Under the pieces are notes generated by a model. The model was not told the DNA's origin, made no database searches, and was given only the letters and a program-made list of their open reading frames with translations. Positions 33 to 28,526 of a stretch of 64,000 nt of DNA are shown in pieces. The stretch is from a virus (taxonomy: Duplodnaviria > Caudoviricetes): the IMG/VR virus record IMGVR_UViG_3300036778_000062, positions 76,646-140,645 of that record; one strand, written 5' to 3'. Within the stretch, counting starts at the first letter, position 1. Each line of letters begins with the position of its first letter. Both the position numbers and the translations under genes were made by a program.

Positions 33-2639
33 CTATGGTACAGAAACGATCACGACTCCGGAGCCGCCATTGCCGCCCGGTTGACCACCGCCGCCACCGC
101 CGCCTGTATTCGCGGTGCCGGATACTCCCGGATTTGGATTCGCCTGCGCAGCGCCACCGCCGCATGTCGCTCCGCCGGGGGTCGAACCCGCGCTCGTACC
201 TGCACCGCCGCCACCCGCGTAGCAAACCGACGCGCCGGAAATACTGGACATCAAGCCGGCGCCGCCGCTACCCGCCGTTGTTGTGCTGGGAGCAGCTTGA
301 CCTGCGCCGCCAGCGCCACCACCACCACCGCCTTGAACAAAGCCCAAGAGGTTGTCGCCGCCCTTATTGCCTTGCCCGGCAGTGCCACTCGCGCCCGGTC
401 CAGTAAAGCCGCCGCAAGATCCGCCACCAGACCCACCAACGTTTGGACCAATTCCAGCACCGCAACCTCCACCGCCTCCGATCGCAGTAAAGCCATTGAA
501 TGACGAGTTTGAACCGTTAAGGCCAACGGATCCGCTTGCGCCCGCGCCACCAGCGCCGACGACGACGGGATATGCCCCTGATGTGAGAACTGCCGAGCCG
601 GGCAGCACGCCGCCAGCGCCACCGCCACCACCACCCGCGCCAGCGCCGCCCGCCACGATCAGATAGTTGATCAGGCTTGCGCCGACTTGCTGATAGAACG
701 TTCCGCTCGAATTGAAGACATAGATCGTCGGGCTCGTCAGCGGAGTCCAAGTGATCCTGATGACGCCTTGCTTGGCATCGCCGCCGGGGCCTCCATTGTT
801 GCCAGAACCGCCGCGTCCACCACCGCCACCGCCGCCACCATATCCAAGTGACGCGCCGCCAGCTGCACCGGGAAAAGATCCGGCTCCACCGCCACCACCG
901 CCTCCACCGCCGCCGGTGCCAATTCCTGTTGCAAGATCGCTACCCATCGACCCGGCGCCGCCGTTGGTGCCGGCACCAAGACCGCCGCTTGCGCCGAAGC
1001 CAGCAAATCCACCACCGCCGCCGCCGCCGTTGCTGCCATCCGATCCATTCGAATTGTTGCCACCAGCGCCACCACCGGTGCCGGCCTGATTGTTGCCACC
1101 GCTGCCCCCGATCGCGGTGCCACTGACTTGCGTTTGCCCAGTAGAGCCGCCTCCATTGCCGCCGCCACCGCTGCCGCCATTGGTGCCAACTGTATTGCCG
1201 CCAGCGGCACCAACCCCCAAAGGACCACCAGCGCCTCCGCCGCCGCCACCGCCTGCAGTGGTAAGGCCACCTGTGCCGCCAATGCCGCCGTTGAAATTTG
1301 CGGCAGCACCCGTGCCGCCCGTGCCGCCCGCACCCGCGCCACCGCCGCCGCCGCCATTCGACGCACCAGCGATACCAGCGCCACCACCGTTCGCTGTGCA
1401 TGCGCCCGTGAATGAAGTGCTTGTACCCGCCGTCCCGTTCGTAGCTATCGCACCACCGCTGCCGCCCGTGCCGATGGTGAAAGCAACGCTCGTGCTTGGT
1501 GTCAGACTGACATTAGCCGACTTGCGGTATTCACCACCACCACCGCCGCCGCCCGACGCCGCGCTATTGGTGCCGCCACCACCGCCACCACCGCCACCAC
1601 CAATGCACTCAATCGAATTGTCGCTGTTGTTAAAGTTGAGCGGGACAGTCCAACTGCCCGACGAAGTCAGAAGAACGCTGACTTGCGCCGTATAGGCAAC
1701 GATGACGACACCGGAGCCACCGTTGCCACCTGCTGCTCCTACGACTTGTTGAGAGCCACCACCTCCGCCGCCGCCGGTGTTTGCCGTTCCAGGCGATCCG
1801 GGCTGAGCCGTGCCGCTGATCGAGATGCCGCCTGCACCTCCACCACCTGTACCGCCCGCACCGTTCGTGCTTCCCGCATTGACACCGTTTTGTCCGCCGC
1901 CACCACCACCGCCGTAGGTGAGCGACGTCCCCGTAATGGATGATGCGCATCCATTACCGCCGTTGCCCCCATTGCTGGTTGAAGACCCGGTACCACCATT
2001 GCTGCCAACTGCGTTGCAGCCGCCACCTCCGGACCCGCCTGTATCGGTGGCCGCGCCTTGATCGCCACCTTTGTGGCCAGCAGAACCAGCGCCACCACTG
2101 AGAGGGCCGCCACTCACCCAGCCGGCAGCACCGCCACCGCTCGCGCCGCCAAGGCCATTACCGAATGATCCTCCACCACCGCCGCCGATCGCGGACGCGA
2201 CCCCGGCAATAGATGATGATGAACCGTTCGATCCCGCCACGCTGCTGGAAGAACCACCCGCGCCACCACCACCAATAGTGACGCTGTAAGAGCCGGCAAT
2301 AAGATTTGTCGATCCGGGGTTAACCTGTCCAGCACCACCACCACCACCAGCACCGATGTTTGTCGCCCCGGCACCGCCACCACCACCACCGCCGACAACA
2401 ATATAGTTGACGTTGCCCGAGCCGGTGCATGTCAACGTAGCGCTCGAATTGAAGACATGAATGCGGGTCGCGCCGAAGGCGGAGATAGTGCCGCCCGTGC
2501 ATGAGATATTTTGTGTGCTGCTGCTGAGTTGCGCCATCAGCATGGGTTGAAATGTGCCGGGCATATTGGCCTGCGCGGCGGACAGGAGCGCCAGCCAGGG
2601 CGCGACAACGAACGCGAGAACAGCTCTACGGAACGTCAT
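33..2639 (-). CDS. Glycine-rich phage tail-associated protein (three Gly-rich domains) with N-terminal signal peptide
   Basis: 868 aa; repeated YxxVxGGGGGG...GxNGxxSSF...GGSGVVIV units typical of phage Gly-rich domains; MTFRRAVLAFVVAPWLALLSAAQA leader; 10 Cys. Confidence 0.8.
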   Translation of the reverse strand: MTFRRAVLAFVVAPWLALLSAAQANMPGTFQPMLMAQLSSSTQNISCTGGTISAFGATRIHVFNSSATLTCTGSGNVNYIVVGGGGGGGAGATNIGAGGGGGAGQVNPGSTNLIAGSYSVTIGGGGAGGSSSSVAGSNGSSSSIAGVASAIGGGGGGSFGNGLGGASGGGAAGWVSGGPLSGGAGSAGHKGGDQGAATDTGGSGGGGCNAVGSNGGTGSSTSNGGNGGNGCASSITGTSLTYGGGGGGGQNGVNAGSTNGAGGTGGGGAGGISISGTAQPGSPGTANTGGGGGGGSQQVVGAAGGNGGSGVVIVAYTAQVSVLLTSSGSWTVPLNFNNSDNSIECIGGGGGGGGGGTNSAASGGGGGGGEYRKSANVSLTPSTSVAFTIGTGGSGGAIATNGTAGTSTSFTGACTANGGGAGIAGASNGGGGGGAGAGGTGGTGAAANFNGGIGGTGGLTTAGGGGGGGAGGPLGVGAAGGNTVGTNGGSGGGGNGGGSTGQTQVSGTAIGGSGGNNQAGTGGGAGGNNSNGSDGSNGGGGGGGFAGFGASGGLGAGTNGGAGSMGSDLATGIGTGGGGGGGGGGAGSFPGAAGGASLGYGGGGGGGGRGGSGNNGGPGGDAKQGVIRITWTPLTSPTIYVFNSSGTFYQQVGASLINYLIVAGGAGAGGGGGGAGGVLPGSAVLTSGAYPVVVGAGGAGASGSVGLNGSNSSFNGFTAIGGGGGCGAGIGPNVGGSGGGSCGGFTGPGASGTAGQGNKGGDNLLGFVQGGGGGGAGGAGQAAPSTTTAGSGGAGLMSSISGASVCYAGGGGAGTSAGSTPGGATCGGGAAQANPNPGVSGTANTGGGGGGGQPGGNGGSGVVIVSVP

Positions 2640-2642
2640 GTA

Positions 2643-3938
2643 TCACTTCACATTCTGAAGGAGAGAGGCTGCGCAAAAGTTGACCGTGATGCAGGATCCT
2701 TCGAGTACGTCGACCGCACCAGCTATGGTCGACAGCGTCGGGGTAACGCCTCCGGGAAATTTCAACAGACTGTTCCAGACGGTCGAGCGCCCACCCGTGG
2801 AATCTTGAATAAACCTGATCTGGAATGATTTCCCGACCATAGGCGTGAAGTTCATCGTGGTGATGTTGCCGGTCAGCGTGACAGCCGCGTTGATGAACGT
2901 CGTGGTGTCGATGCTGATGGTCGAACCAAAGGTGATGGTGGCTTCGGCCGAGTAGATCACGCTCGCCGGCACGAGCACACTCGACGCGCCACTCTGATAC
3001 TGCGATCCGGTTGCCACCGCAGCGGTCGCCATATCAGCGAAGGTTACAAGGCCGGCTGCGCTGAACGAGCTGTGAACTGTGAGGCCGCCGCCGCCAGCGC
3101 CGACATCAACCGTCCCGGTCGAACCTCCATTGCCGATAAGAATGATGCCGCTGCCCTTGGCATTGAGCGAAAGATTTTCATTAGTGGCCGTCGATGTCGT
3201 GTTGAGGCCCGTGCCGCTTCCAGCAGCGTTGCCGACGATTTGTAGGCCTGTGGCCTGATTGGTTCTGGAGCCGTCAACAGTGAGCACGGGATTGGTCGCG
3301 CCATTGGCGCCGACCGCGAGCGCGGTCGACGAGTTCGACTGGATGGCTGTCGGTCCCTTCACCGCGAGCACGTTGCCGCCGATCGTCGCGCCGCCAAGCG
3401 AGAGCGATCCGGAGAGCACCGCATTTACGCCGCCGATCGTTCCCGTGAATGTCGGGCCGGCAGTCATCGCGACGCTGCCAGTGCCGGAGATCGTGTATTC
3501 GTCGAGAACACCAGCGTTATCGAAGAGCACACGCGCGCTCGTGCCTCCGATGACGTCAGTGATGCCGACCGTCATAGACGCCGCAGTCGCGGTCAGCAGG
3601 TCGATTGTCGTGCCGTTCACCTGCGCAAAGACGCCGGAAGAAGTCATCCACAGATCGCCATCTGCGGGCTGCGCGGGCGTCGTGCCTGGGGTTAGATTGA
3701 AACCGGCCGTCTGCGCGCCGGGCGGTGCCGTGACAAGCCGCCCGGTCATGATCCCGCCGGCGGTGTTCAGCGGGACGTAACCCAAATCATCCTGCTTGGA
3801 CGCGAAATAGCTATTCCACTGCGCCGCGGTCGGCACCTGACCGTTCTGCAGGTTTGGCGAGGACCCCGCGATCGCTGGCAAGCCAGCAGCCATCGCTAGT
3901 CCGGACGCGAGCGCGACCGACTTCAATAACGTCTTCAT
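2643..3938 (-). CDS. Tail-fibre-like beta-rich protein with signal peptide
   Basis: 431 aa, T/G/A/S rich; C-terminal QDSTGGRS.VW...KFPGG..PTLST..GAVDVL motif seen in phage fibre C-termini; AIA-ending leader. Confidence 0.65.
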   Translation of the reverse strand: MKTLLKSVALASGLAMAAGLPAIAGSSPNLQNGQVPTAAQWNSYFASKQDDLGYVPLNTAGGIMTGRLVTAPPGAQTAGFNLTPGTTPAQPADGDLWMTSSGVFAQVNGTTIDLLTATAASMTVGITDVIGGTSARVLFDNAGVLDEYTISGTGSVAMTAGPTFTGTIGGVNAVLSGSLSLGGATIGGNVLAVKGPTAIQSNSSTALAVGANGATNPVLTVDGSRTNQATGLQIVGNAAGSGTGLNTTSTATNENLSLNAKGSGIILIGNGGSTGTVDVGAGGGGLTVHSSFSAAGLVTFADMATAAVATGSQYQSGASSVLVPASVIYSAEATITFGSTISIDTTTFINAAVTLTGNITTMNFTPMVGKSFQIRFIQDSTGGRSTVWNSLLKFPGGVTPTLSTIAGAVDVLEGSCITVNFCAASLLQNVK

Positions 3939-3951
3939 TTCTGATGATCCG

Positions 3952-4602
3952 TTAGAAGGAAGGCGTCTTCCAGGAACCGATGGTATCGGCGGTTAAGTCC
4001 TCGATGTCGTGGGACGCCTGCGCGGCCGCCCGCTCGATGGCGTCGATCTGCTGGCGCCGCTGCTGTTGATCGTCGAGGAAATGCTGGTCAGATGGAGAGC
4101 GATTCTGACGAATGGCCGCCATCACCTGATCGGGCTTGGTGGTTGCCTTGCTGAACCATCCAAGCTTGTTCATGGCAGCCTGATAGGCATCATTTTCCAC
4201 TTTTGCGAGGTCGTTCTCGCGCATGCCGAACAGGCGCCGCTTTCCGGCTGGCAAAATCTTCGAAATCGCAATCTGCTCGGCATGGTAAAGCAGGCTCAAT
4301 AAATTGAGCTTGGCGGCCGCAAGTGCCTGCTGCGGGTCTGGTGGATCGATCGATGGACTATCGTCGACGATCTCAAAATTTGCTTCGTCATTTTCGTCGA
4401 TAGACTTCTCGATCGCGATGTGGGCGCGTGGCCGCGGATAAGCAATGTGACGCTGGAACGGGGCTAACTCGGAGTTCGCCTCATCCTGCTTTACGCGGCT
4501 CATGTGCGTGCGCCATGCCTTCAACTCAACTGCGTGAGACGCGGCCTTGCCAGCGAAGTCTTCAATGCCAACGATTTCCGAGAGCTTGATCTTATGCTTC
4601 AT
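3952..4602 (-). CDS. Putative tail-fibre assembly chaperone
   Basis: Overlaps the fibre gene stop; helical 216 aa; position typical of a chaperone. Confidence 0.45.
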   Translation of the reverse strand: MKHKIKLSEIVGIEDFAGKAASHAVELKAWRTHMSRVKQDEANSELAPFQRHIAYPRPRAHIAIEKSIDENDEANFEIVDDSPSIDPPDPQQALAAAKLNLLSLLYHAEQIAISKILPAGKRRLFGMRENDLAKVENDAYQAAMNKLGWFSKATTKPDQVMAAIRQNRSPSDQHFLDDQQQRRQQIDAIERAAAQASHDIEDLTADTIGSWKTPSF

Positions 4603-21244: not shown

Positions 21245-22711
21245 TTAGGCGCTGACCTTGATGCTGGCCGCGTGTGGGAAGCGCGCGGCCAGGCTCTTGG
21301 CGACCGCGGCGTCAGTCGCGATCGGCGGCCTCGGCGGTGGGTTGCCGTTGCCCGGCTGCTTATGGGAACGCAACACTGCCTTGGCGGCTGGAATGCTGTC
21401 GATCTTGTCGGCATCTTCGACACCGAGCACACCGAGGGCAGCCTGATAGACGCTGATCGCGCTATCGAAGGCGCCCTTAAGAGTGCCGACATACGGCCTG
21501 ACTTCCTCGCGGGCGTCCACGGCGGCCTGCACGCGATCGCGCTCGGCTTTGACCGCGGCGCTGATCGCCTGGTCCATGGCCTTCTTGTCGACCATGTCCT
21601 TGGTCTTCTCGGCAACAGCCTTCTCGACATCGCCCGCCATCTTCTCCTCGGCCTCCTTCGCCTTGCGCTTCTTCTCTTCGTCGTCTTCCTCGTCATCCTC
21701 ATCGGCGGCGCCTCGCGGACCGGCCTTGAGCATGTCGCAGGCCTTCAGGTAGTCATCCTCGCCGAGCTTGCCCTTGAGGAAAGCGTGGATGTCGGACTCG
21801 CCGCCCTCGGCGTCCATCGTCTCTTCCGGCATATCCTCGACGTCGATCTCGTCATCACCTTCCGCGATCGGGGCCTTTTCCAAGGCATCGATCAGGCCGG
21901 CGACGTCCTCGATCGAGGCGTCAGCCGCAAGCTTGCCCTTGGTCGCGGTCTTGATGCCGGCAATGATTGTCGGTTTCTGCGTGGCGAAATTCTTGGCCGT
22001 CAGCTTCGCCAGGATCGTTCGAAGATCGACCTTGGCGTCAAGAGCCAGGCGCGGAGCGAGGTGGAGGGCGATGACGCTGCGGACAGCGGCACCGGTACGC
22101 GTCATCTTAACTTTCGCCATCTTGATGGTCTCCATGGTGTCGCCGACCACAACATCGGGTCCGGCTCGTCCTTCTTTCACAAGCGCAACGTGATTGCCGA
22201 CAATGTCTCGCATGACGCCGTCGTATTCCTCGCCGTCGGGCGTGTGGCCCGGCGTCATGTCAGCGCGATAGCGGTACGCGCTCGACAATTCCTTTTTCAG
22301 CTCATCCTCGATATCGCCGATGCCTTCGCCGGCCCAGACGACCAGCGAATTGTCGAGGTAGGGCGCGTCGAACTCGGAGTCGGTACCGAGGGACCCGATC
22401 ACGAGCTCAGGCCTGTGGTCGCGCGCATCGACCGGGACATGGCGGGAGAGCAGCGGCAGGTTATTGAAAGTCTCTGCCGCTTTCTTCAATTCGTCCGGAT
22501 GCCGCCAGAGCTTATAAAGCTTGCGAGGATCAAGCCCCAGCTTTTCGAACTCAGGAATCTCGACGCCGAGATATTCGCAGACGTTTGCCTTCGAGATGTG
22601 CGTCTTCGCAACATGCAGGCGACCGTCGGCGTCATAGTTGCGCACTGACGCGCGGTCGAAGGCGAGGATCTCGCGCGCATCGAATGCGGGGTGCGGCGAT
22701 ACGCCCGACAT
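21245..22711 (-). CDS. Prohead protease/scaffold (DUF2213)
   Basis: DGRLHV...ISKANV..Y.G.EIP, KELSSAYRY, NHVALV..GRAGPDV; acidic scaffold C-term. Confidence 0.92.
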   Translation of the reverse strand: MSGVSPHPAFDAREILAFDRASVRNYDADGRLHVAKTHISKANVCEYLGVEIPEFEKLGLDPRKLYKLWRHPDELKKAAETFNNLPLLSRHVPVDARDHRPELVIGSLGTDSEFDAPYLDNSLVVWAGEGIGDIEDELKKELSSAYRYRADMTPGHTPDGEEYDGVMRDIVGNHVALVKEGRAGPDVVVGDTMETIKMAKVKMTRTGAAVRSVIALHLAPRLALDAKVDLRTILAKLTAKNFATQKPTIIAGIKTATKGKLAADASIEDVAGLIDALEKAPIAEGDDEIDVEDMPEETMDAEGGESDIHAFLKGKLGEDDYLKACDMLKAGPRGAADEDDEEDDEEKKRKAKEAEEKMAGDVEKAVAEKTKDMVDKKAMDQAISAAVKAERDRVQAAVDAREEVRPYVGTLKGAFDSAISVYQAALGVLGVEDADKIDSIPAAKAVLRSHKQPGNGNPPPRPPIATDAAVAKSLAARFPHAASIKVSA

Positions 22712-22725
22712 AGTTATCCTCGCGG

Positions 22726-22998
22726 CTATTTCGCTGGCTTGGTGGTGGTCTTTTCGTCGAGAGTCGATTTATCTGCGGCGGCCTTATCGGCCGCCGCTTT
22801 GGCGTCTATGGCGTTGAGTTGCTGCTGAAGGATCGTCAGCACGGGCGCGGACGTCTTGTAGGGCAGCTCCATCAGGCCCTGGCCGATGATCTGCAGCTCC
22901 GCGCGCGTCACGTCGAGTTTGAGATGATCCGTTGGGGTCTGTGCAATCGCACTGCCTGCCCCGACGAACATAAGTAATGCCACAAGCAAGATTCTCAT
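22726..22998 (-). CDS. Small phage protein with signal peptide
   Basis: MRILLVALLMFVGAGSAIA leader; L.ELPYK.SAP helical core; AAGGA RBS. Confidence 0.65.
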   Translation of the reverse strand: MRILLVALLMFVGAGSAIAQTPTDHLKLDVTRAELQIIGQGLMELPYKTSAPVLTILQQQLNAIDAKAAADKAAADKSTLDEKTTTKPAK

Positions 22999-23163
22999 AT
23001 TCTGATTTCCTTTAGCGTGGACAAACCTGCTCGGCTGAGTTGAGGGCGGCCTTGGGTCGCGCAGGGCGTGTGGTGCACGTTGTGGATGAGCATCTCGCAC
23101 GCTGGACGTGAACAGGAAGGGACGCCTAGGTTCCAGCCGACACTTTGGTCACGGGAGATTTTG

Positions 23164-23631
23164 ATGAAGTTCGCTCTGATGACGAAAGCCGTGGTTGCCG
23201 CGGCATTTCTTTCCTTAAGCTATGACGCAGTCTTCGCTGACCCCATAAGAGCAGTCGGTCGAGCCGATTGCAGTCAACTTTGTTGGTTTCACCAACCTAC
23301 AGAGGTGGGAATCGATTACTCGTGCTCGATGAAGCTTCAAACTCAGAAGGAAGCAGACTTTTGGAAGCAAGGCTTTAAGACGATTGGAGGACCTCGAACC
23401 AATCTGACAATGGATTTGGTTAGCCTCGACTCGGATAGCTCGGCTCCCAAATGTCCGGCGATAACCTGGCAGTCGTTCGACGCAGTGCGGCAGTTGCAGT
23501 CGACCCCTGTAACCGGCGTAGTTCACTCGGGCGAGAACTGCTCCCTATCCGGCAACATCGCACCAGGAGAATCGGTCGTGTTTTCGTGCACGCATGGTTC
23601 TTCGACGCAGGCAACTGTTTTCCCCAAATAG
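23164..23631 (+). CDS. Moron: secreted Cys-rich protein
   Basis: Antisense to the late operon, lower GC, signal peptide, 6 Cys in the mature part. Confidence 0.65.
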   Translation: MKFALMTKAVVAAAFLSLSYDAVFADPIRAVGRADCSQLCWFHQPTEVGIDYSCSMKLQTQKEADFWKQGFKTIGGPRTNLTMDLVSLDSDSSAPKCPAITWQSFDAVRQLQSTPVTGVVHSGENCSLSGNIAPGESVVFSCTHGSSTQATVFPK

Positions 23632-23653: not shown

Positions 23654-24451
23654 CTATAAGAAGCCCGGGATCACCGGGCGCGCGATACATCGGCAATTGA
23701 TCAACTCGCCGGGCAGAACGTGCTTGTCGACCGCGGGATCGAACCAGCCTTTGGAAAGCTGGAATTTCTCCTTGTTGCGACCGGCGGCAACGTGTGTGGG
23801 TCGCGGATGCTTGCCGCCACCGCTGTGAACCCAGATAGCCTCTGTGATGCCGGCCTGCACCTGGCGCGCGCGGGTCATCACCGCGGTCGCCTTGTTGTTC
23901 TGGTCTCGCGCGATAGTCGTCGCGCGCCGCTTCGTCACTCCGAACTGTTCTTGCAGGGCCTTGGTGAGCTGGCCGAGATCGCGCCCGGTCTGCACCGAAC
24001 GCATCACCATGCCCTCGACCTGGATCAGATACTGCTGCGGGATCGACTTGATGAGGGATACCTGCTCATTGATCGTTGCGTCGATGACGTCGCGCATCGC
24101 CGGCGTCATGTTGAATTTGACGGTGAAGCCGCCATCGCGAAGGATCTTCTTCAGAGCCGCATCGCTGCGCGCATGAACTGTAGTCGCAAAATATTCCGCG
24201 AGCTTGGGTGCGGCTCGATCGAAATTCCGCTTCCATCGACGCGCCAGTTGGCGAACCGCTAGCCGCAACTCTTCGGCCGGATTTCGGTCCTGGGCCATGA
24301 TCGGCGGGTTCTGCCGATATGCCGCCTTGAGCCAGTAGACGAACGAGGCGTTCATCTCCTCAATCAGCTCGATGAGCTTCCGACGGTATGCCGACTCGAT
24401 ACCGGCGTTCGGGTGAACCGGCCGCAGCGTCTTTGCTTTCGGCCGCTTCAC
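23654..24451 (-). CDS. Minor head protein (MuF/SPP1 gp7 family)
   Basis: RA.TIARDQ.NK, W.HS....PR.TH, PGELINCRC. Confidence 0.92.
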   Translation of the reverse strand: MKRPKAKTLRPVHPNAGIESAYRRKLIELIEEMNASFVYWLKAAYRQNPPIMAQDRNPAEELRLAVRQLARRWKRNFDRAAPKLAEYFATTVHARSDAALKKILRDGGFTVKFNMTPAMRDVIDATINEQVSLIKSIPQQYLIQVEGMVMRSVQTGRDLGQLTKALQEQFGVTKRRATTIARDQNNKATAVMTRARQVQAGITEAIWVHSGGGKHPRPTHVAAGRNKEKFQLSKGWFDPAVDKHVLPGELINCRCIARPVIPGFL

Positions 24452-27096
24452 TTCAATCGCCCGAACGCGCTGTCCGTCAGCGACTTGTCCGAAGCCCCGC
24501 CGCCCGGCCGCTTGACGCCGTTGCGTTTCAAGAAGTCATTGAGCTGCTTTGCTCCGGTTGGCGAAGCGGAGGCGATGCGAACATCTTCCAGCTCGTTGGG
24601 CACCACGACCTCGCCGGCCGAGTTGAACTTCGGCTTCCAGCCGCCAGCAAGCGCCTTTTCGAAAGCAGTCTCGCGTTCGTTGGATCGAGCCCGCTGCTTT
24701 TCACGTTCAGCCCGCCTTTGGGCATCCTGTTCGGCCTTGCGCTCGGTGGCCGACATCTTGCCCCACCGGCTCATTTCCGTGGCGAATTCCTGCTCCTCTT
24801 CACCGACCTCATCGTGTTCGCGCGCCATGATTTGGTCCATCTCAGCGATGGCGCTTTCGGAGCCTGATTTCAACTCGATCACCGCGGACTGCAGTCTGTC
24901 CAGGGCCTCCTGCACGTCGTCCTCATCGGCGTCCGGATCGTCAAGGTGATCCCGCAGGTTCTCAGTCGCATCGTCCACTTCAGACGCCAGTCCTTCGAGG
25001 TGGTCCGCCAGGTTCGCCATCTTCGCGGCGCCGATGTGCGTCACCGTCTGCGATTTCTGTCCCGCTTCGATAGGGGCGGCTCCCAGCAGATCGGCCGCTC
25101 GATTGTGCATGTCTTGCGCCGCTTTTCGCAAAGCGTCGGCTGCCGCCGGCGCTTCACCGATCGCATCGCGGAAATCCGACTCTGCTGTGAACTCTTCACC
25201 ATCCTCCAGCTCGGCACGATCCTCCGGCGTGATATCCATGATGTCGTCAGCGGCAGTCCCGATCTGCTCTCGAACCGATTCCAGATTGTCGCGAGCCTCG
25301 GATATCCCTTTCGATGCTTCACCGAACTTAGCTGCGCGAGCCTTGCTCGCCGCTTTTTCGGCGCCACCGCCGCCAGCTTCCCAGCGGCCGGAGTCATCGC
25401 GAGGATGATCAGCTTCGGTGAAATCTTCGTCGGAGGCTAAGCTGCTCGACGGCTCTCCGCGCGCCGCGCCGCCCTTAGGCTCGAGACCTTCGTCCTCTTC
25501 CTCTTTCAGGTCGGGCATGTCCTCGGTATTGAGGCCCGGATAGAGCGTGTCCGGCGCGTTGGCGACGCGCTTGCGCTCTTCTTCGGGTGAGATGACACCG
25601 CTGTCGATCTGGATCTGCGCCGTCTCCGAGTTGACTTTGCGGACGTCTGCCTGCCCCTTTTCGTCCAGCTCCCACAGAGGCTCGTAAGTGTAGAAAAGAT
25701 CAGGATCGACGCGCCCCCAGATATTGATTTGTGCGAACCGGAATACGCGGTCGAGGTTTGGCGAAAAGAACTGTTCCTGTTTCGCATGGATGTGGTCGTA
25801 GAACGCGCGCAGCTCAGGCTCTGCTGTCGCGTTCAAGCCGTGTGGCGAGATGCCGAGCAGCTTGACCAATGGGATACGTGATACCGATGCTTGATGCTCC
25901 TGCGCCTGGGCCTGCAGCATATCCAACGACGCGAGCGACGTGGATACGTTCTGGAATTCCTCCGATTCCGCGTCGATGACCATCACACCGCGGTTGTCGC
26001 GAGTGTTGTTGAATAGGTCTACGCGTTTGAAGAGCTGATCGCCGCCAGGCGTCAGCGTCTCGCCCATGTTGGTCGATAGCACGAAGACCGAGAAGGCCTG
26101 CACGATGTCGGCAACACTCTGCCGAATGTTCAGGAAGTTCTCGACGTACGGCTTCGCCATCTGCGTCAACGACAAGCCGCCGAACGAGTAGGCGGGTTTG
26201 AGCGCGTCAGGGACCGGTCGACCGACGAACTTCAGCAGCCTCGATACGTGGACTTCCCGGTCCATCACGAACCACGACTGCGGATTATACCAATCCGGCC
26301 GAAGCGGATTGTTCGAGTTGTAGCTCGTCGGGTACGTCCACATCGGTTCGACGACGGCTAACCGCTTCAGGTCTCCTCGTCCGAACTTCTGTTCCGTGAC
26401 GCCGTTCTTGCCGTTGCCGATCGGCATCTTCAGCTCGTTCCAATCGTCGGTGTCCCCGGTATCGAGATAGAGATGCGCACGGCCAAAGAACCCATCGACC
26501 TCGCAAGATTGGCAGAAGGTCTCACGAACCTTCAGACGCTCGAACTCTTCGTTGAGTTGCGCGATCTTCTTCGTTTTGTCCTTGTCGCCCTTCGCCTGGA
26601 TGCGGATCCACTTGCGAGTCATCTCGGTCGCGATCGTCTCGACCATGACGCGATATTCTGGACGCTGCGCGAGCTCGGCGAGGTACTGATAGCCGAGGAA
26701 CGCGATACCCTCGAAAGCGGCGTGGGAGCCCAGGGCATTCCAGGCACCGCCCGCCCAAGCCGAGATACCCGTTATCGCCTCGTCAGACGCCATCCTCCGA
26801 TCGACGGGGATGTTGTCCATAAGCTGGACCGGGAAGTCAGGCAGCTTGAACGGGTTGACGCGGGTGTAGCGTTCGGCCTTCTGCCTCGACCGTTGGAGAA
26901 CGTCGTCCGAAACGACGATCGGTTTCCGCTCGGCGCGATCGGCCGCTACCTTGATCTCCTCCGGCTGCAGCGTCTTCTTGGCGATCTTCCTTGCGACCCT
27001 ACGCGTCGGTGCGCGGCGCGCGCGTGCGGGCTTCTGCAGCTCTATGAACTCCAGCACCATCTGCCGGGCGAGCTGTTTGACGTCCTTCTTCTTCAC
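24448..27096 (-). CDS. Portal protein (DUF1073 type) with ~330-aa C-terminal extension
   Basis: FLGY.YL.ELAQRPEYR, EVH.SRL, IPLVKLLGISP.GLNA; directly after the terminase. Confidence 0.9.
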   Translation of the reverse strand: MKKKDVKQLARQMVLEFIELQKPARARRAPTRRVARKIAKKTLQPEEIKVAADRAERKPIVVSDDVLQRSRQKAERYTRVNPFKLPDFPVQLMDNIPVDRRMASDEAITGISAWAGGAWNALGSHAAFEGIAFLGYQYLAELAQRPEYRVMVETIATEMTRKWIRIQAKGDKDKTKKIAQLNEEFERLKVRETFCQSCEVDGFFGRAHLYLDTGDTDDWNELKMPIGNGKNGVTEQKFGRGDLKRLAVVEPMWTYPTSYNSNNPLRPDWYNPQSWFVMDREVHVSRLLKFVGRPVPDALKPAYSFGGLSLTQMAKPYVENFLNIRQSVADIVQAFSVFVLSTNMGETLTPGGDQLFKRVDLFNNTRDNRGVMVIDAESEEFQNVSTSLASLDMLQAQAQEHQASVSRIPLVKLLGISPHGLNATAEPELRAFYDHIHAKQEQFFSPNLDRVFRFAQINIWGRVDPDLFYTYEPLWELDEKGQADVRKVNSETAQIQIDSGVISPEEERKRVANAPDTLYPGLNTEDMPDLKEEEDEGLEPKGGAARGEPSSSLASDEDFTEADHPRDDSGRWEAGGGGAEKAASKARAAKFGEASKGISEARDNLESVREQIGTAADDIMDITPEDRAELEDGEEFTAESDFRDAIGEAPAAADALRKAAQDMHNRAADLLGAAPIEAGQKSQTVTHIGAAKMANLADHLEGLASEVDDATENLRDHLDDPDADEDDVQEALDRLQSAVIELKSGSESAIAEMDQIMAREHDEVGEEEQEFATEMSRWGKMSATERKAEQDAQRRAEREKQRARSNERETAFEKALAGGWKPKFNSAGEVVVPNELEDVRIASASPTGAKQLNDFLKRNGVKRPGGGASDKSLTDSAFGRLK

Positions 27097-28526
27097 GCGA
27101 GCGGCTTCCGTCGTCGGACCGGGATGGCTGACTTCGCGAGGACCTCGTCAGAAATGATGAGCGGCGCGCGCGCGACAAACGCGAGATAGTCCAAAGCCCA
27201 CACGAGCGCATCCATCCGATCGGGCGAACCTTCGAGCGCATAGCCGTCGCGGGTCATTGCGCACATCTGGTCCTCGAGCTCAATGAAGTCGCCGATATGA
27301 GAAATCTTGTTCTGCTCGTACAGAGCTGCGATCGGCTCGGCTCTCACGACCTTGCCGCGCGATGCGACGACTTCCTCATAGGGCACGCTTCTGTCGATCG
27401 TCCGGATGACGTGCTCGACCATGGCGCCGCCGTAGTTACGTTCGGCGACAATTCGATCAGCCTTGAATTCGTGATAGGCGGCAACCGCTCGCCGTCCCCA
27501 GCCATCCGGCGAGAGCTTGCAACTGCGATCCGCCAGGACGTAGCCGCGACCGTCTATACCCTTGCCGGCAACGATGATGCCGATCTCGTCGCCGTCGTCC
27601 TCGTCGCCGCCGGTGCCCGACGGGTCCACTGATACGACGATGCGCCGAAGGTCCGGAATCGTGACCGGCTTCCGAGCCTCATCGATCATGAGGCGCGTCC
27701 AGAGCGCGCCTGGCACGTCGTCGAGGATCTCGGCGTTCAGCTCCTGCCGGCCGAGCCGCGTCCCGCCATACCGATCCACGATCGACTGGATGAACGACGG
27801 CGGCAGGTTCGAGGCATTCGCCAGCGTGCTCCCGCTGGTGATACGGGTGAGCGCATCCTTGATCAGATATCGGATCAGCGGAATGGGGCGCGGCGTGGTG
27901 GTGATGCAGGCTCGCGGATGCAATCCAAGCCGCAGGCCGAATTGTAGTTGGTCCCAGGTGTCTTGCGCATAGCGCCACTTCGCCAGCTCATCGCACCACG
28001 CCGCATCATGTTGCGGGCCGCGGAGCTGGTCCGGCTCAGTTGCGTTGTACAGCGTGGCGATCGCACCATTGGGCCATGTGAGGCGGCGTTTGGACGGCTC
28101 GTAGTCCGGCCGGAAATCTTTCGGGTGAACCTGTAGAAGGCCAGAGCCTTCGTCTTCGGCTTTGCCGTCACCGACCATCACTTCGCGCGCATCGGCAGCA
28201 GTTTCCGCGATCAGCGCTAGCTGGCGATATCGACCGCGGCCGAGGGGCGTCGAACCGCAAACGTTGTCGCGAACCCACTCGGCGCCAGTGCGTGTTTTGC
28301 CGAAGCCGCGGCCGGCCATGAGCAGCCAGTATTTCCAGGCCGGATCGGCGGGCTCGATCTGGTCGGGGCGGGCCCAGAACTTCCAGTCCCAGCGAAGCGC
28401 CTCGAGCTGGCCGTCAGTCAGACCCGCCAGTATCTCCGCCCGTTCGCTTTCGGGCAGCGATGCTAGCAATTCGGCTTGCGATGAGTTCACGAGGACTGAC
28501 GTTCTTGGTTTCGATGGGGCCGCCAC
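27093..28526 (-). CDS. terL: Terminase large subunit
   Basis: Walker A AGRGFGKT, LRGPQ, WCDELAKW, TTTPRP, nuclease VSVDPS...SPDRMDALVW; true start may be the GTG near 28490. Confidence 0.95.
   Translation of the reverse strand: MAAPSKPRTSVLVNSSQAELLASLPESERAEILAGLTDGQLEALRWDWKFWARPDQIEPADPAWKYWLLMAGRGFGKTRTGAEWVRDNVCGSTPLGRGRYRQLALIAETAADAREVMVGDGKAEDEGSGLLQVHPKDFRPDYEPSKRRLTWPNGAIATLYNATEPDQLRGPQHDAAWCDELAKWRYAQDTWDQLQFGLRLGLHPRACITTTPRPIPLIRYLIKDALTRITSGSTLANASNLPPSFIQSIVDRYGGTRLGRQELNAEILDDVPGALWTRLMIDEARKPVTIPDLRRIVVSVDPSGTGGDEDDGDEIGIIVAGKGIDGRGYVLADRSCKLSPDGWGRRAVAAYHEFKADRIVAERNYGGAMVEHVIRTIDRSVPYEEVVASRGKVVRAEPIAALYEQNKISHIGDFIELEDQMCAMTRDGYALEGSPDRMDALVWALDYLAFVARAPLIISDEVLAKSAIPVRRRKPLA

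Follow-up and report, generated by a model that had tools for sequence, protein, structure and literature searches.

A swappable acidic cassette behind a widespread header peptide on a phage portal protein

Why should a phage portal protein carry more than 300 additional residues that its closest relatives do without? The question arises from the gene at 24448..27096 (minus strand) of a 64,000-nucleotide stretch of a Caudoviricetes virus (IMG/VR record IMGVR_UViG_3300036778_000062, positions 76,646 to 140,645), hereafter called the window. The source of this portal is a temperate phage, a prophage of a soil bacterium. The gene is one unbroken open reading frame (ORF) of 882 residues, and, as the initial annotation had claimed, its product carries an acidic extension of about 330 residues (residues 557-882, net charge -31). 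Comparison with related phages indicates that this extension is a discrete accessory cassette of recent exchange. It begins with a short peptide, here termed the header, which opens unrelated modules on the head proteins of many phages. We consider it probable that the cassette is cargo that is built into the head, acts by binding and is most likely freed and ejected with the DNA.

The portal identity of the gene is well supported. PF06381 (Phage_portal_3) covers residues 136-494 with 276.1 bits against a Pfam cut-off of 33.8, and phrog_146 matches the product of 24448-27096 with E = 6.7e-105. TIGR01555 also matches (102.6), under its equivalog cut-off of 196. This core of the Phage_portal_3/HI1409 family (25615..26691, minus strand) is followed by the crown and an acidic tail (residues 495-545, ending ...EEEDEGLEPKGGAA; 25462..25614, minus strand), which are common to the relatives: the DNA is homologous to that of related loci and the tails of short relatives align with it.

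The extension begins where this homology ends. Three related viral contigs (L123, L124 and L125) are collinear with the window from the terminase gene through the portal core, and again from the start of the MuF gene, with 67-79% nucleotide identity in the aligned blocks. In blastn alignments, the homology stops at 25463-25471 and restarts at 24428-24448, that is, at the MuF start. Between these breakpoints lie ~1,035 nucleotides in the window versus 57-76 nucleotides in the three relatives, so that 1.03 kb stands in place of a short spacer. The inserted cassette (24449..25462, minus strand) comprises the last 337 portal codons, its frame is open throughout, and its G+C content at third codon positions (GC3) is 0.69 versus 0.785 in the core. 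Its borders agree with those that the initial annotation gave for the extension, and the break in homology falls ~14 codons upstream of the first residue of the header.

Across a wider sample, the extension follows the same pattern of presence and absence. Among 34 related loci, eight have a portal extension of at least 80 residues, seven of them with the header; the other 26 have neither extension nor header. Together with the 1.03-kb indel, this settles a proviso attached to the initial annotation, namely that the extension might be universal in the family: it is swappable, and most related loci lack it. The nearest portals in a large protein collection, some of them from Bradyrhizobium, are 70-85% identical over the core, measure 550-570 residues and end in a short acidic tail without the HPR motif. 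None of the 880 cultured-phage records whose translations match the portal does so past residue 572. Judged by these alignments, the C-terminal region of the portal is an accessory, horizontally exchanged cassette, an indel relative to close kin, and we are highly confident that it represents swappable head-borne cargo.

Three further observations concern portals of this family. Most of the short relatives (within P0008-P0126) have an acidic tail that closes in ...AA or ...AAE (RKAA, QAA, EAAE), a conserved signature of the C-terminus; a degron or a docking end would be guesses. In P0005 (1291 residues), the portal core is broken at residues ~450-760 by a Hint_2 intein-like insert (PF13403), and portal sequence continues beyond it. 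In the window, the 110-120 N-terminal portal residues ahead of the Pfam core (26737-27096, minus strand) are strongly basic, with a charge of +14 over the first 90; the Pa193 portal showed no trace of its first 93 residues, either in the map or by liquid chromatography-mass spectrometry (PMC11456595).

What marks the border of the cassette? The initial annotation had pointed to LASD, HPRDxxGRW and GGGG, and all three are present. LASD occupies residues 553-556 (the string LASDEDFTEADHPRDDSGRWEAGGGG begins at residue 553, from 25440 downwards in the window). The header peptide F559-T-E-A-D-H-P-R-D-D-S-G-R-W572 (25381..25422, minus strand), with HPRDDSGRW at residues 564-572, leads directly into the glycine-rich linker EAGGGG (residues 573-578; 25363..25380, minus strand). 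The predicted local distance difference test score (pLDDT) of the linker is below 50.

We scanned IMG/VR with a back-translated pattern for F-x-E-x-x-H-P-R-x3-G-K-F and found it in at least 117 stretches of DNA, where a rough calculation gives a chance expectation of a few. From 117 non-identical viral instances among the matches listed, we derived the consensus F-x-E-S-[DEK]-H-P-R-D-x-D-G-K-F. The positions that the pattern leaves free are also biased, with S at +3, D/E/K at +4, D at +8 and +10, T/G at +14 and a Gly/Ser run at +16 to +20, which corresponds to the linker in the window. Residues just 5' of the header are biased weakly (D/A at -3, A/D at -2, E/D at -1). The window's header, the single one in the whole 140,645-bp virus record, fits F-x-E-x-x-H-P-R-x(3)-G-[KRQ]-[FW] plus a G/S-rich linker, departing from the consensus by R for K and W for F.

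In three cultured phages, the portal alignment stops exactly at the motif: Pseudomonas phage Orisa03 (...F-D-E-N-K-HPRSDDGKF-G), Burkholderia phage vB_E159 (...F-K-E-D-D-HPRDADGKF-G) and Xanthomonas phage PhiXhv-5 (...W-E-E-N-K-HPRADNGQF-G). The domains past the header are mutually unrelated in these phages, and that of Orisa03 shows an ADP-ribosyltransferase-like R-S-E when read by eye. The header begins an exchangeable module likewise in all three and in the protein P0081. The initial annotation had stated that HPR motifs precede variable domains on head proteins, and this is borne out both by these phages and by the census.

The carriers and the cargo are diverse. In 66 sequences 5' of the header, taken from the matches listed, Pfam identified PF06381 portals in 28, lambda-type portals in 8, Mu portals in 2 and a P23-45-type portal, together with the non-portal families DUF2213 (2), MuF (1), NUDIX (7), InPase (2), 2H, Acb1 and topoisomerase IB (TopoIB). 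The carriers listed thus span four portal families. The 113 modules listed 3' of the header include Zeta kinases (10), TopoIB (10), ADP-ribosyltransferases (8 + 2 + 1), NUDIX (5), LPD3 (5), DUF2213 (3), PBECR1 (3), GNATs, SAM lyase and HipA-like kinases; about half matched no Pfam family. Some proteins have two or three headers, one ahead of each module (three in P0081; also P0086 and P0094). The header can also come first: it lies within the first 25 residues in 23 of the 106 listed ORFs with a complete 5' end, and a third of such free header-first genes stand directly behind a portal or MuF gene. We also observed that DUF2213, a head protease/scaffold, may stand on either side of an HPR header and that some proteins are portal-header-DUF2213 fusions (L004, L131 and others; phrog_30637); the header therefore joins core head proteins too, beyond effectors.

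Taken at the level of sequence, the header is a general, widespread opening of swappable modules on phage head proteins. A description of this peptide was found neither in a literature search nor in the searched passages of PMC5512222 and PMC9503650, and it is apparently undescribed in print.

Is the header a cleavage site for the head protease? A DUF2213 gene was found nearby in 13 of 18 PF06381 header loci versus 3 of 30 other header loci, both counts being limited by jackhmmer sensitivity and short flanks. Since the header also occurs on stand-alone proteins and at loci where no DUF2213 was found, a site for this phage's own protease is not the simplest reading, and these distributions weaken the idea of a DUF2213-specific cleavage site. 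Either the reader of the header would be more general than this protease, or it would not be a protease.

Beyond the motif, the extension measures 310 residues. An AlphaFold2 model, for which few homologues were available, has a mean pLDDT of 75 and consists almost wholly of helices, with one small beta-hairpin towards the end. The acidic helical domain (residues 595-775, 181 residues; 24772..25314, minus strand) contains 27.6% aspartate plus glutamate, with a net charge of -36 and an isoelectric point (pI) of 4.05; it is delimited by composition, by the model and by blocks conserved with P0003, P0004 and P0144. It is followed by a conserved C-terminal module (residues 770-864; 24505..24789, minus strand), which phmmer, a profile and the model define as a long charged helix, a GWKPxFN beta-hairpin and two helices, and which reaches a mean pLDDT of 82 when modelled alone. 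The protein ends in a disordered basic tail (residues 865-882; 24451..24504, minus strand; pLDDT below 50). The D/E-rich helical region proposed initially is therefore real, and two further details of that proposal fared less well. The two similar halves did not hold up: the best local alignment of halves reached only z = 0.9-2.0 over shuffles, with every split point tried. The basic end exists here (the last 107 portal residues have a pI of 10.2), but it is not a trait of the family described next.

A phmmer search with residues 573-882 against 1.84 billion representative proteins returned five proteins. A profile of the C-terminal module, run on the 425-2000-residue class, added about 20 more; its 21 matches are all PF06381 portals of 670-1110 residues. 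The cargo thus has ~25 relatives in total, and homologues are 29-37% identical. A scan of genome contigs for relatives gave one distant locus, and a search of viral contigs with the extension as a single protein gave none. The order of parts is constant in every member: a header, an acidic part of 135-240 residues (net -11 to -35) and the conserved module of ~95 residues. The module has the signature W-x-x-[ML]-[ST]-x-x-E-[RQ]-x-A-E, a long charged helix, G-W-[KR]-P-x-[FL]-N, ...[AS]-S-P and two helices. The acidic part falls into three sub-types; the window groups with P0003, P0004 and P0144, with which it has the blocks DITPEDRAELE.G.EF and DEDADEDD in common.

The cargo occurs in four contexts. 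It is fused to PF06381 portals in the window, P0003, P0005, L037 and P0127-P0146. In L117 (the same protein as P0004), it forms a separate gene of 407 residues with its own header at residue 75. In P0006, which lacks a portal, it stands behind NUDIX and a further module that has a header. In P0081 it is internal, between the portal and further modules that end in an ADP-ribosyltransferase-like domain (by eye). These contexts mark it as one cassette among many. The L117 arrangement (664-4571, minus strand) consists of a portal-header-TopoIB fusion of 901 residues and then the 407-residue cargo gene, with a 16-nucleotide overlap in another frame; the pair may be coupled, frameshifted or independent.

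How might such a cassette work? The C-terminus of a portal (crown or barrel) faces the capsid interior. The portal ring is assumed, from its family and from the Pa193 and E217 structures, to be dodecameric and to sit at one capsid vertex. Being fused behind the portal crown, the extension would be built into the procapsid with the dodecamer, up to 12 copies would face the capsid interior, and it is probably packed inside the virus head. By all available sequence and model-based tests, the cargo appears non-enzymatic, with no catalytic signature; if delivered, it would therefore work by binding something. Action in the next host would require its release, presumably at or near the header; it would then exit with the DNA and, from the first moments of infection, serve to decoy or inhibit a host protein. 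By analogy with known leader peptides, the header is the obvious candidate for a processing or loading signal, which would also explain its N-terminal position on free-standing cargo genes. Physical release and ejection, taken as a step of its own, we rate somewhat below an even chance.

Several results weigh against this proposal. A portal-tethered domain can leave the capsid only after a cut. In the related Pa193 portal, residues 529-765 (237 residues past the barrel) are present in the gene and gave no cryo-electron microscopy density (PMC11456595). No family of Pfam, PHROG or NCBIfam matched the extension above threshold. With the whole extension as query, Foldseek found nothing in PDB or BFVD beyond helical bundles of generic or designed type (E ~0.02 or weaker), and the C-terminal module alone gave nothing significant (best Z 4.4 in a wide VIA-align search; best Foldseek E 2.8 against PDB). 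Neither Foldseek nor VIA revealed an enzyme, toxin or known-inhibitor fold. The net charge of homologous C-terminal modules ranges from -12 to +5, so the basic charge is not conserved and the simplest argument for DNA binding is removed; binding of DNA through a basic end module is weakened as a candidate accordingly. Finally, there is no cognate immunity gene directly 3' of the portal gene, where the next gene is MuF.

Other searches were equally uninformative as to function. A sequence search of PDB gave no relative (E = 0.16), and ESM Atlas gave no usable match. Weak matches of the extension to MakA and SMC proved compositional, and faint winged-helix-like rows for the C-terminal module were not significant.

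The main rival to ejected cargo is a tethered structural role. In such a role, an inner-core or barrel-like body above the portal would be made up of twelve flexibly linked acidic helical bundles; it would organize the DNA spool, gate or slow ejection, or assist in nucleating the shell as a scaffold does. The region is indeed helical and acidic with a small terminal domain, like many scaffolding and core proteins. Moreover, all 21 matches of the module profile are PF06381 portals, which makes the module far less promiscuous than enzyme cargo. In Pa193, the C-terminal region of the portal is not resolved in the map, and the capsid contains a helix-turn-helix scaffold remnant (PMC11456595). However, the closest relatives, whose head genes have 70-78% DNA identity and include homologues for MuF, DUF2213, decoration and capsid, are wholly without the domain, which is thus not needed for assembly. 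The cassette also exists as a free gene (L117), behind NUDIX in a protein that has no portal (P0006) and inside a multi-enzyme chain (P0081), and the extension has no similarity to the C-terminus of the phage's own scaffold-like DUF2213 protein. We therefore regard a structural add-on as unlikely, though as the strongest of the alternatives to freed cargo.

In a more specific version of what the initial annotation had suggested, the head protease would cut at LASD|EDF, and the ~12 injected fragments would mimic DNA and block restriction or other DNA-sensing defences. The charge density of residues 595-775 lies within the range of Ocr and ArdA. Acidic blocks are conserved in homologues, and a location in the head would deliver the domain ahead of gene expression. 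Against this, structural comparison produced no match to any DNA mimic (generic helical bundles at E > 0.01) and no sequence or fold link to Ocr, ArdA or other known inhibitors. The LASD positions are barely conserved 5' of headers, and the header is found at loci without a DUF2213 gene detected nearby and also opens free proteins. Scaffolds are just as typically acidic. Cleavage at LASD followed by injection of a DNA mimic consequently appears improbable, and DNA mimicry or anti-restriction as such hardly less so.

Considerably less probable still is an action in the producing cell, where the portal, assembled or not, would display the domain to the cytoplasm late in infection and so influence packaging, the timing of lysis or the physiology of the host. 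The overlap of the gene with its neighbour suggests translational coupling in a late operon, and a 2026 preprint reports for the portals of T7, P1 and N4 that they modulate the stringent response and bind both RelA and SpoT (10.64898/2026.01.27.700999). However, the preprint deals with the surface of the portal ring and not with domains appended to it, and the header-cassette logic common with ADP-ribosyltransferase, Zeta and TopoIB cargo points to a packaging-related role. That the extension is a remnant in decay, or was joined to the portal by an error of assembly or frame, is barely credible: it has only ~25 relatives among 1.8 billion representative proteins and a GC3 somewhat below that of the core, but no stop interrupts its 337 codons, a two-member cluster (P0002) records the same protein, the architecture and the conserved blocks persist in homologues of 29-37% identity, and the models reach pLDDT values of 75 and 82.

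A packed and delivered cassette would matter for several reasons. Proteins that are packed in the head and delivered with the DNA act ahead of any phage gene expression, and few of them have been established experimentally: Alt and IPI of T4, Dar of P1 and the vRNAP of N4. If the present cargo is delivered, its target would reveal a new point of counter-defence or takeover. The acidic family is rare, non-catalytic and unnamed, hence a new element, and the locus offers a very clean natural comparison, with a 1.03-kb cassette present or absent between sharp borders in homologous phages. The header is the more general prize. It offers a means of searching at least four portal families for cargo carried in the head, and it is short enough for mutagenesis as a loading or cleavage signal. 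At its most far-reaching, the header would be a universal loading or release signal with a conserved partner, and the cassette the first example of a non-enzymatic decoy, a mimic of DNA or of a protein, that the virion delivers together with the DNA end and that disarms a host defence ahead of phage gene expression; we consider this a long shot. The present analysis adds an independent header instance and a quantified census of carriers and cargo; it does not establish the mechanism.

The surrounding genes form a head module, in which the terminase, portal and MuF genes are all on the minus strand. The gene of the large terminase subunit (TerL, 27093-28526) encodes Terminase_6N/6C domains and is followed by the portal gene and by a gene for a short-form MuF (SPP1 gp7-like) head protein of 265 residues (23654..24451; PF04233, phrog_324). 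The portal stop codon TGA and the MuF start codon GTG overlap as GTGA (24448-24451), which suggests translational coupling and leaves no space for an immunity-type gene. Further downstream lie a gene for a DUF2213 protein (21245..22711, minus strand; PF09979, phrog_2229), a gene for a cement protein of the XM1-gp53/E217-gp24 type and the major capsid gene. The DUF2213 protein is a head maturation protease according to PHROGs, and its C-terminal half is acidic and helical; by sequence it is a candidate for both processing enzyme and scaffold. Separately, we observed two small ORFs on opposite strands between the MuF and DUF2213 genes (22726-23100, minus; 23068-23631, plus), both with signal-peptide-like N-termini. 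As only a 104-nucleotide piece of this interval is common with L123, it represents a second variable spot in the head module.

How does the header-cassette arrangement compare with known systems? In T4, a capsid-targeting sequence serves as a leader on internal proteins and Alt, accompanies their loading into the prohead and is removed by the head protease. It has an L-x-E cut site at its end and binds to the scaffolding core. The header is alike in principle, a short leader on non-structural proteins, with which more than a fifth of the complete ORFs listed begin (the 23 of 106 noted above). There is no sequence relation, however, and the header also occurs internally, between domains.

Among portals of the same family, gp19 of Pa193 and the portals of E217 and PB1, all Pseudomonas phages (PMC11456595), also have a C-terminal appendage, of ~240 residues; the PB1 portal aligns with residues 128-548 of the window's portal. 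In PB1, the portal gp18 (L121, 2683-4992, plus strand; 769 residues) has an appendage that, judged by eye, resembles InPase and lacks a canonical HPR header. Unlike the window's extension, this appendage is not acidic (net -1), and it appears to be fixed in its genus as opposed to recently gained or lost.

The closest counterparts are effector domains fused to portal or MuF proteins, which have been proposed to be packaged and injected (searched passages of PMC5512222 and PMC9503650; PMC5576092). The window's portal is an instance of this published class of portal/MuF-anchored variable cargo. As in the polyvalent effector fusions treated in those passages (Iyer et al. 2017, PMC5512222; Burroughs and the Aravind group 2022, PMC9503650), it combines a head anchor with a variable C-terminal module in a terminase-portal-MuF block, and sister phages of the window bear ADP-ribosyltransferase, NUDIX, TopoIB, PBECR, InPase or Zeta domains in the same place. 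It differs from the fusions described there in that its module has no recognisable enzymatic or nucleic-acid-binding domain. The MuF polymorphic toxins (Jamet et al. 2017, PMC5576092) are alike in belonging to temperate phages, in their location in the head-packaging module, and in joining a conserved N-terminal carrier to a polymorphic C-terminus. In the window, however, the carrier is the portal, the phage's own MuF is short and cargo-less, and there is neither a toxin domain nor a downstream immunity gene. Finally, among the pre-toxin junction motifs of polymorphic toxins, the VENN peptide of CdiA stands at the border between a constant carrier and an exchangeable C-terminal cassette (Zhang et al. 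2012, PMC3482391). The header has the same border role as such pre-toxin junctions, with another sequence and another delivery machine, and it additionally opens free-standing genes.

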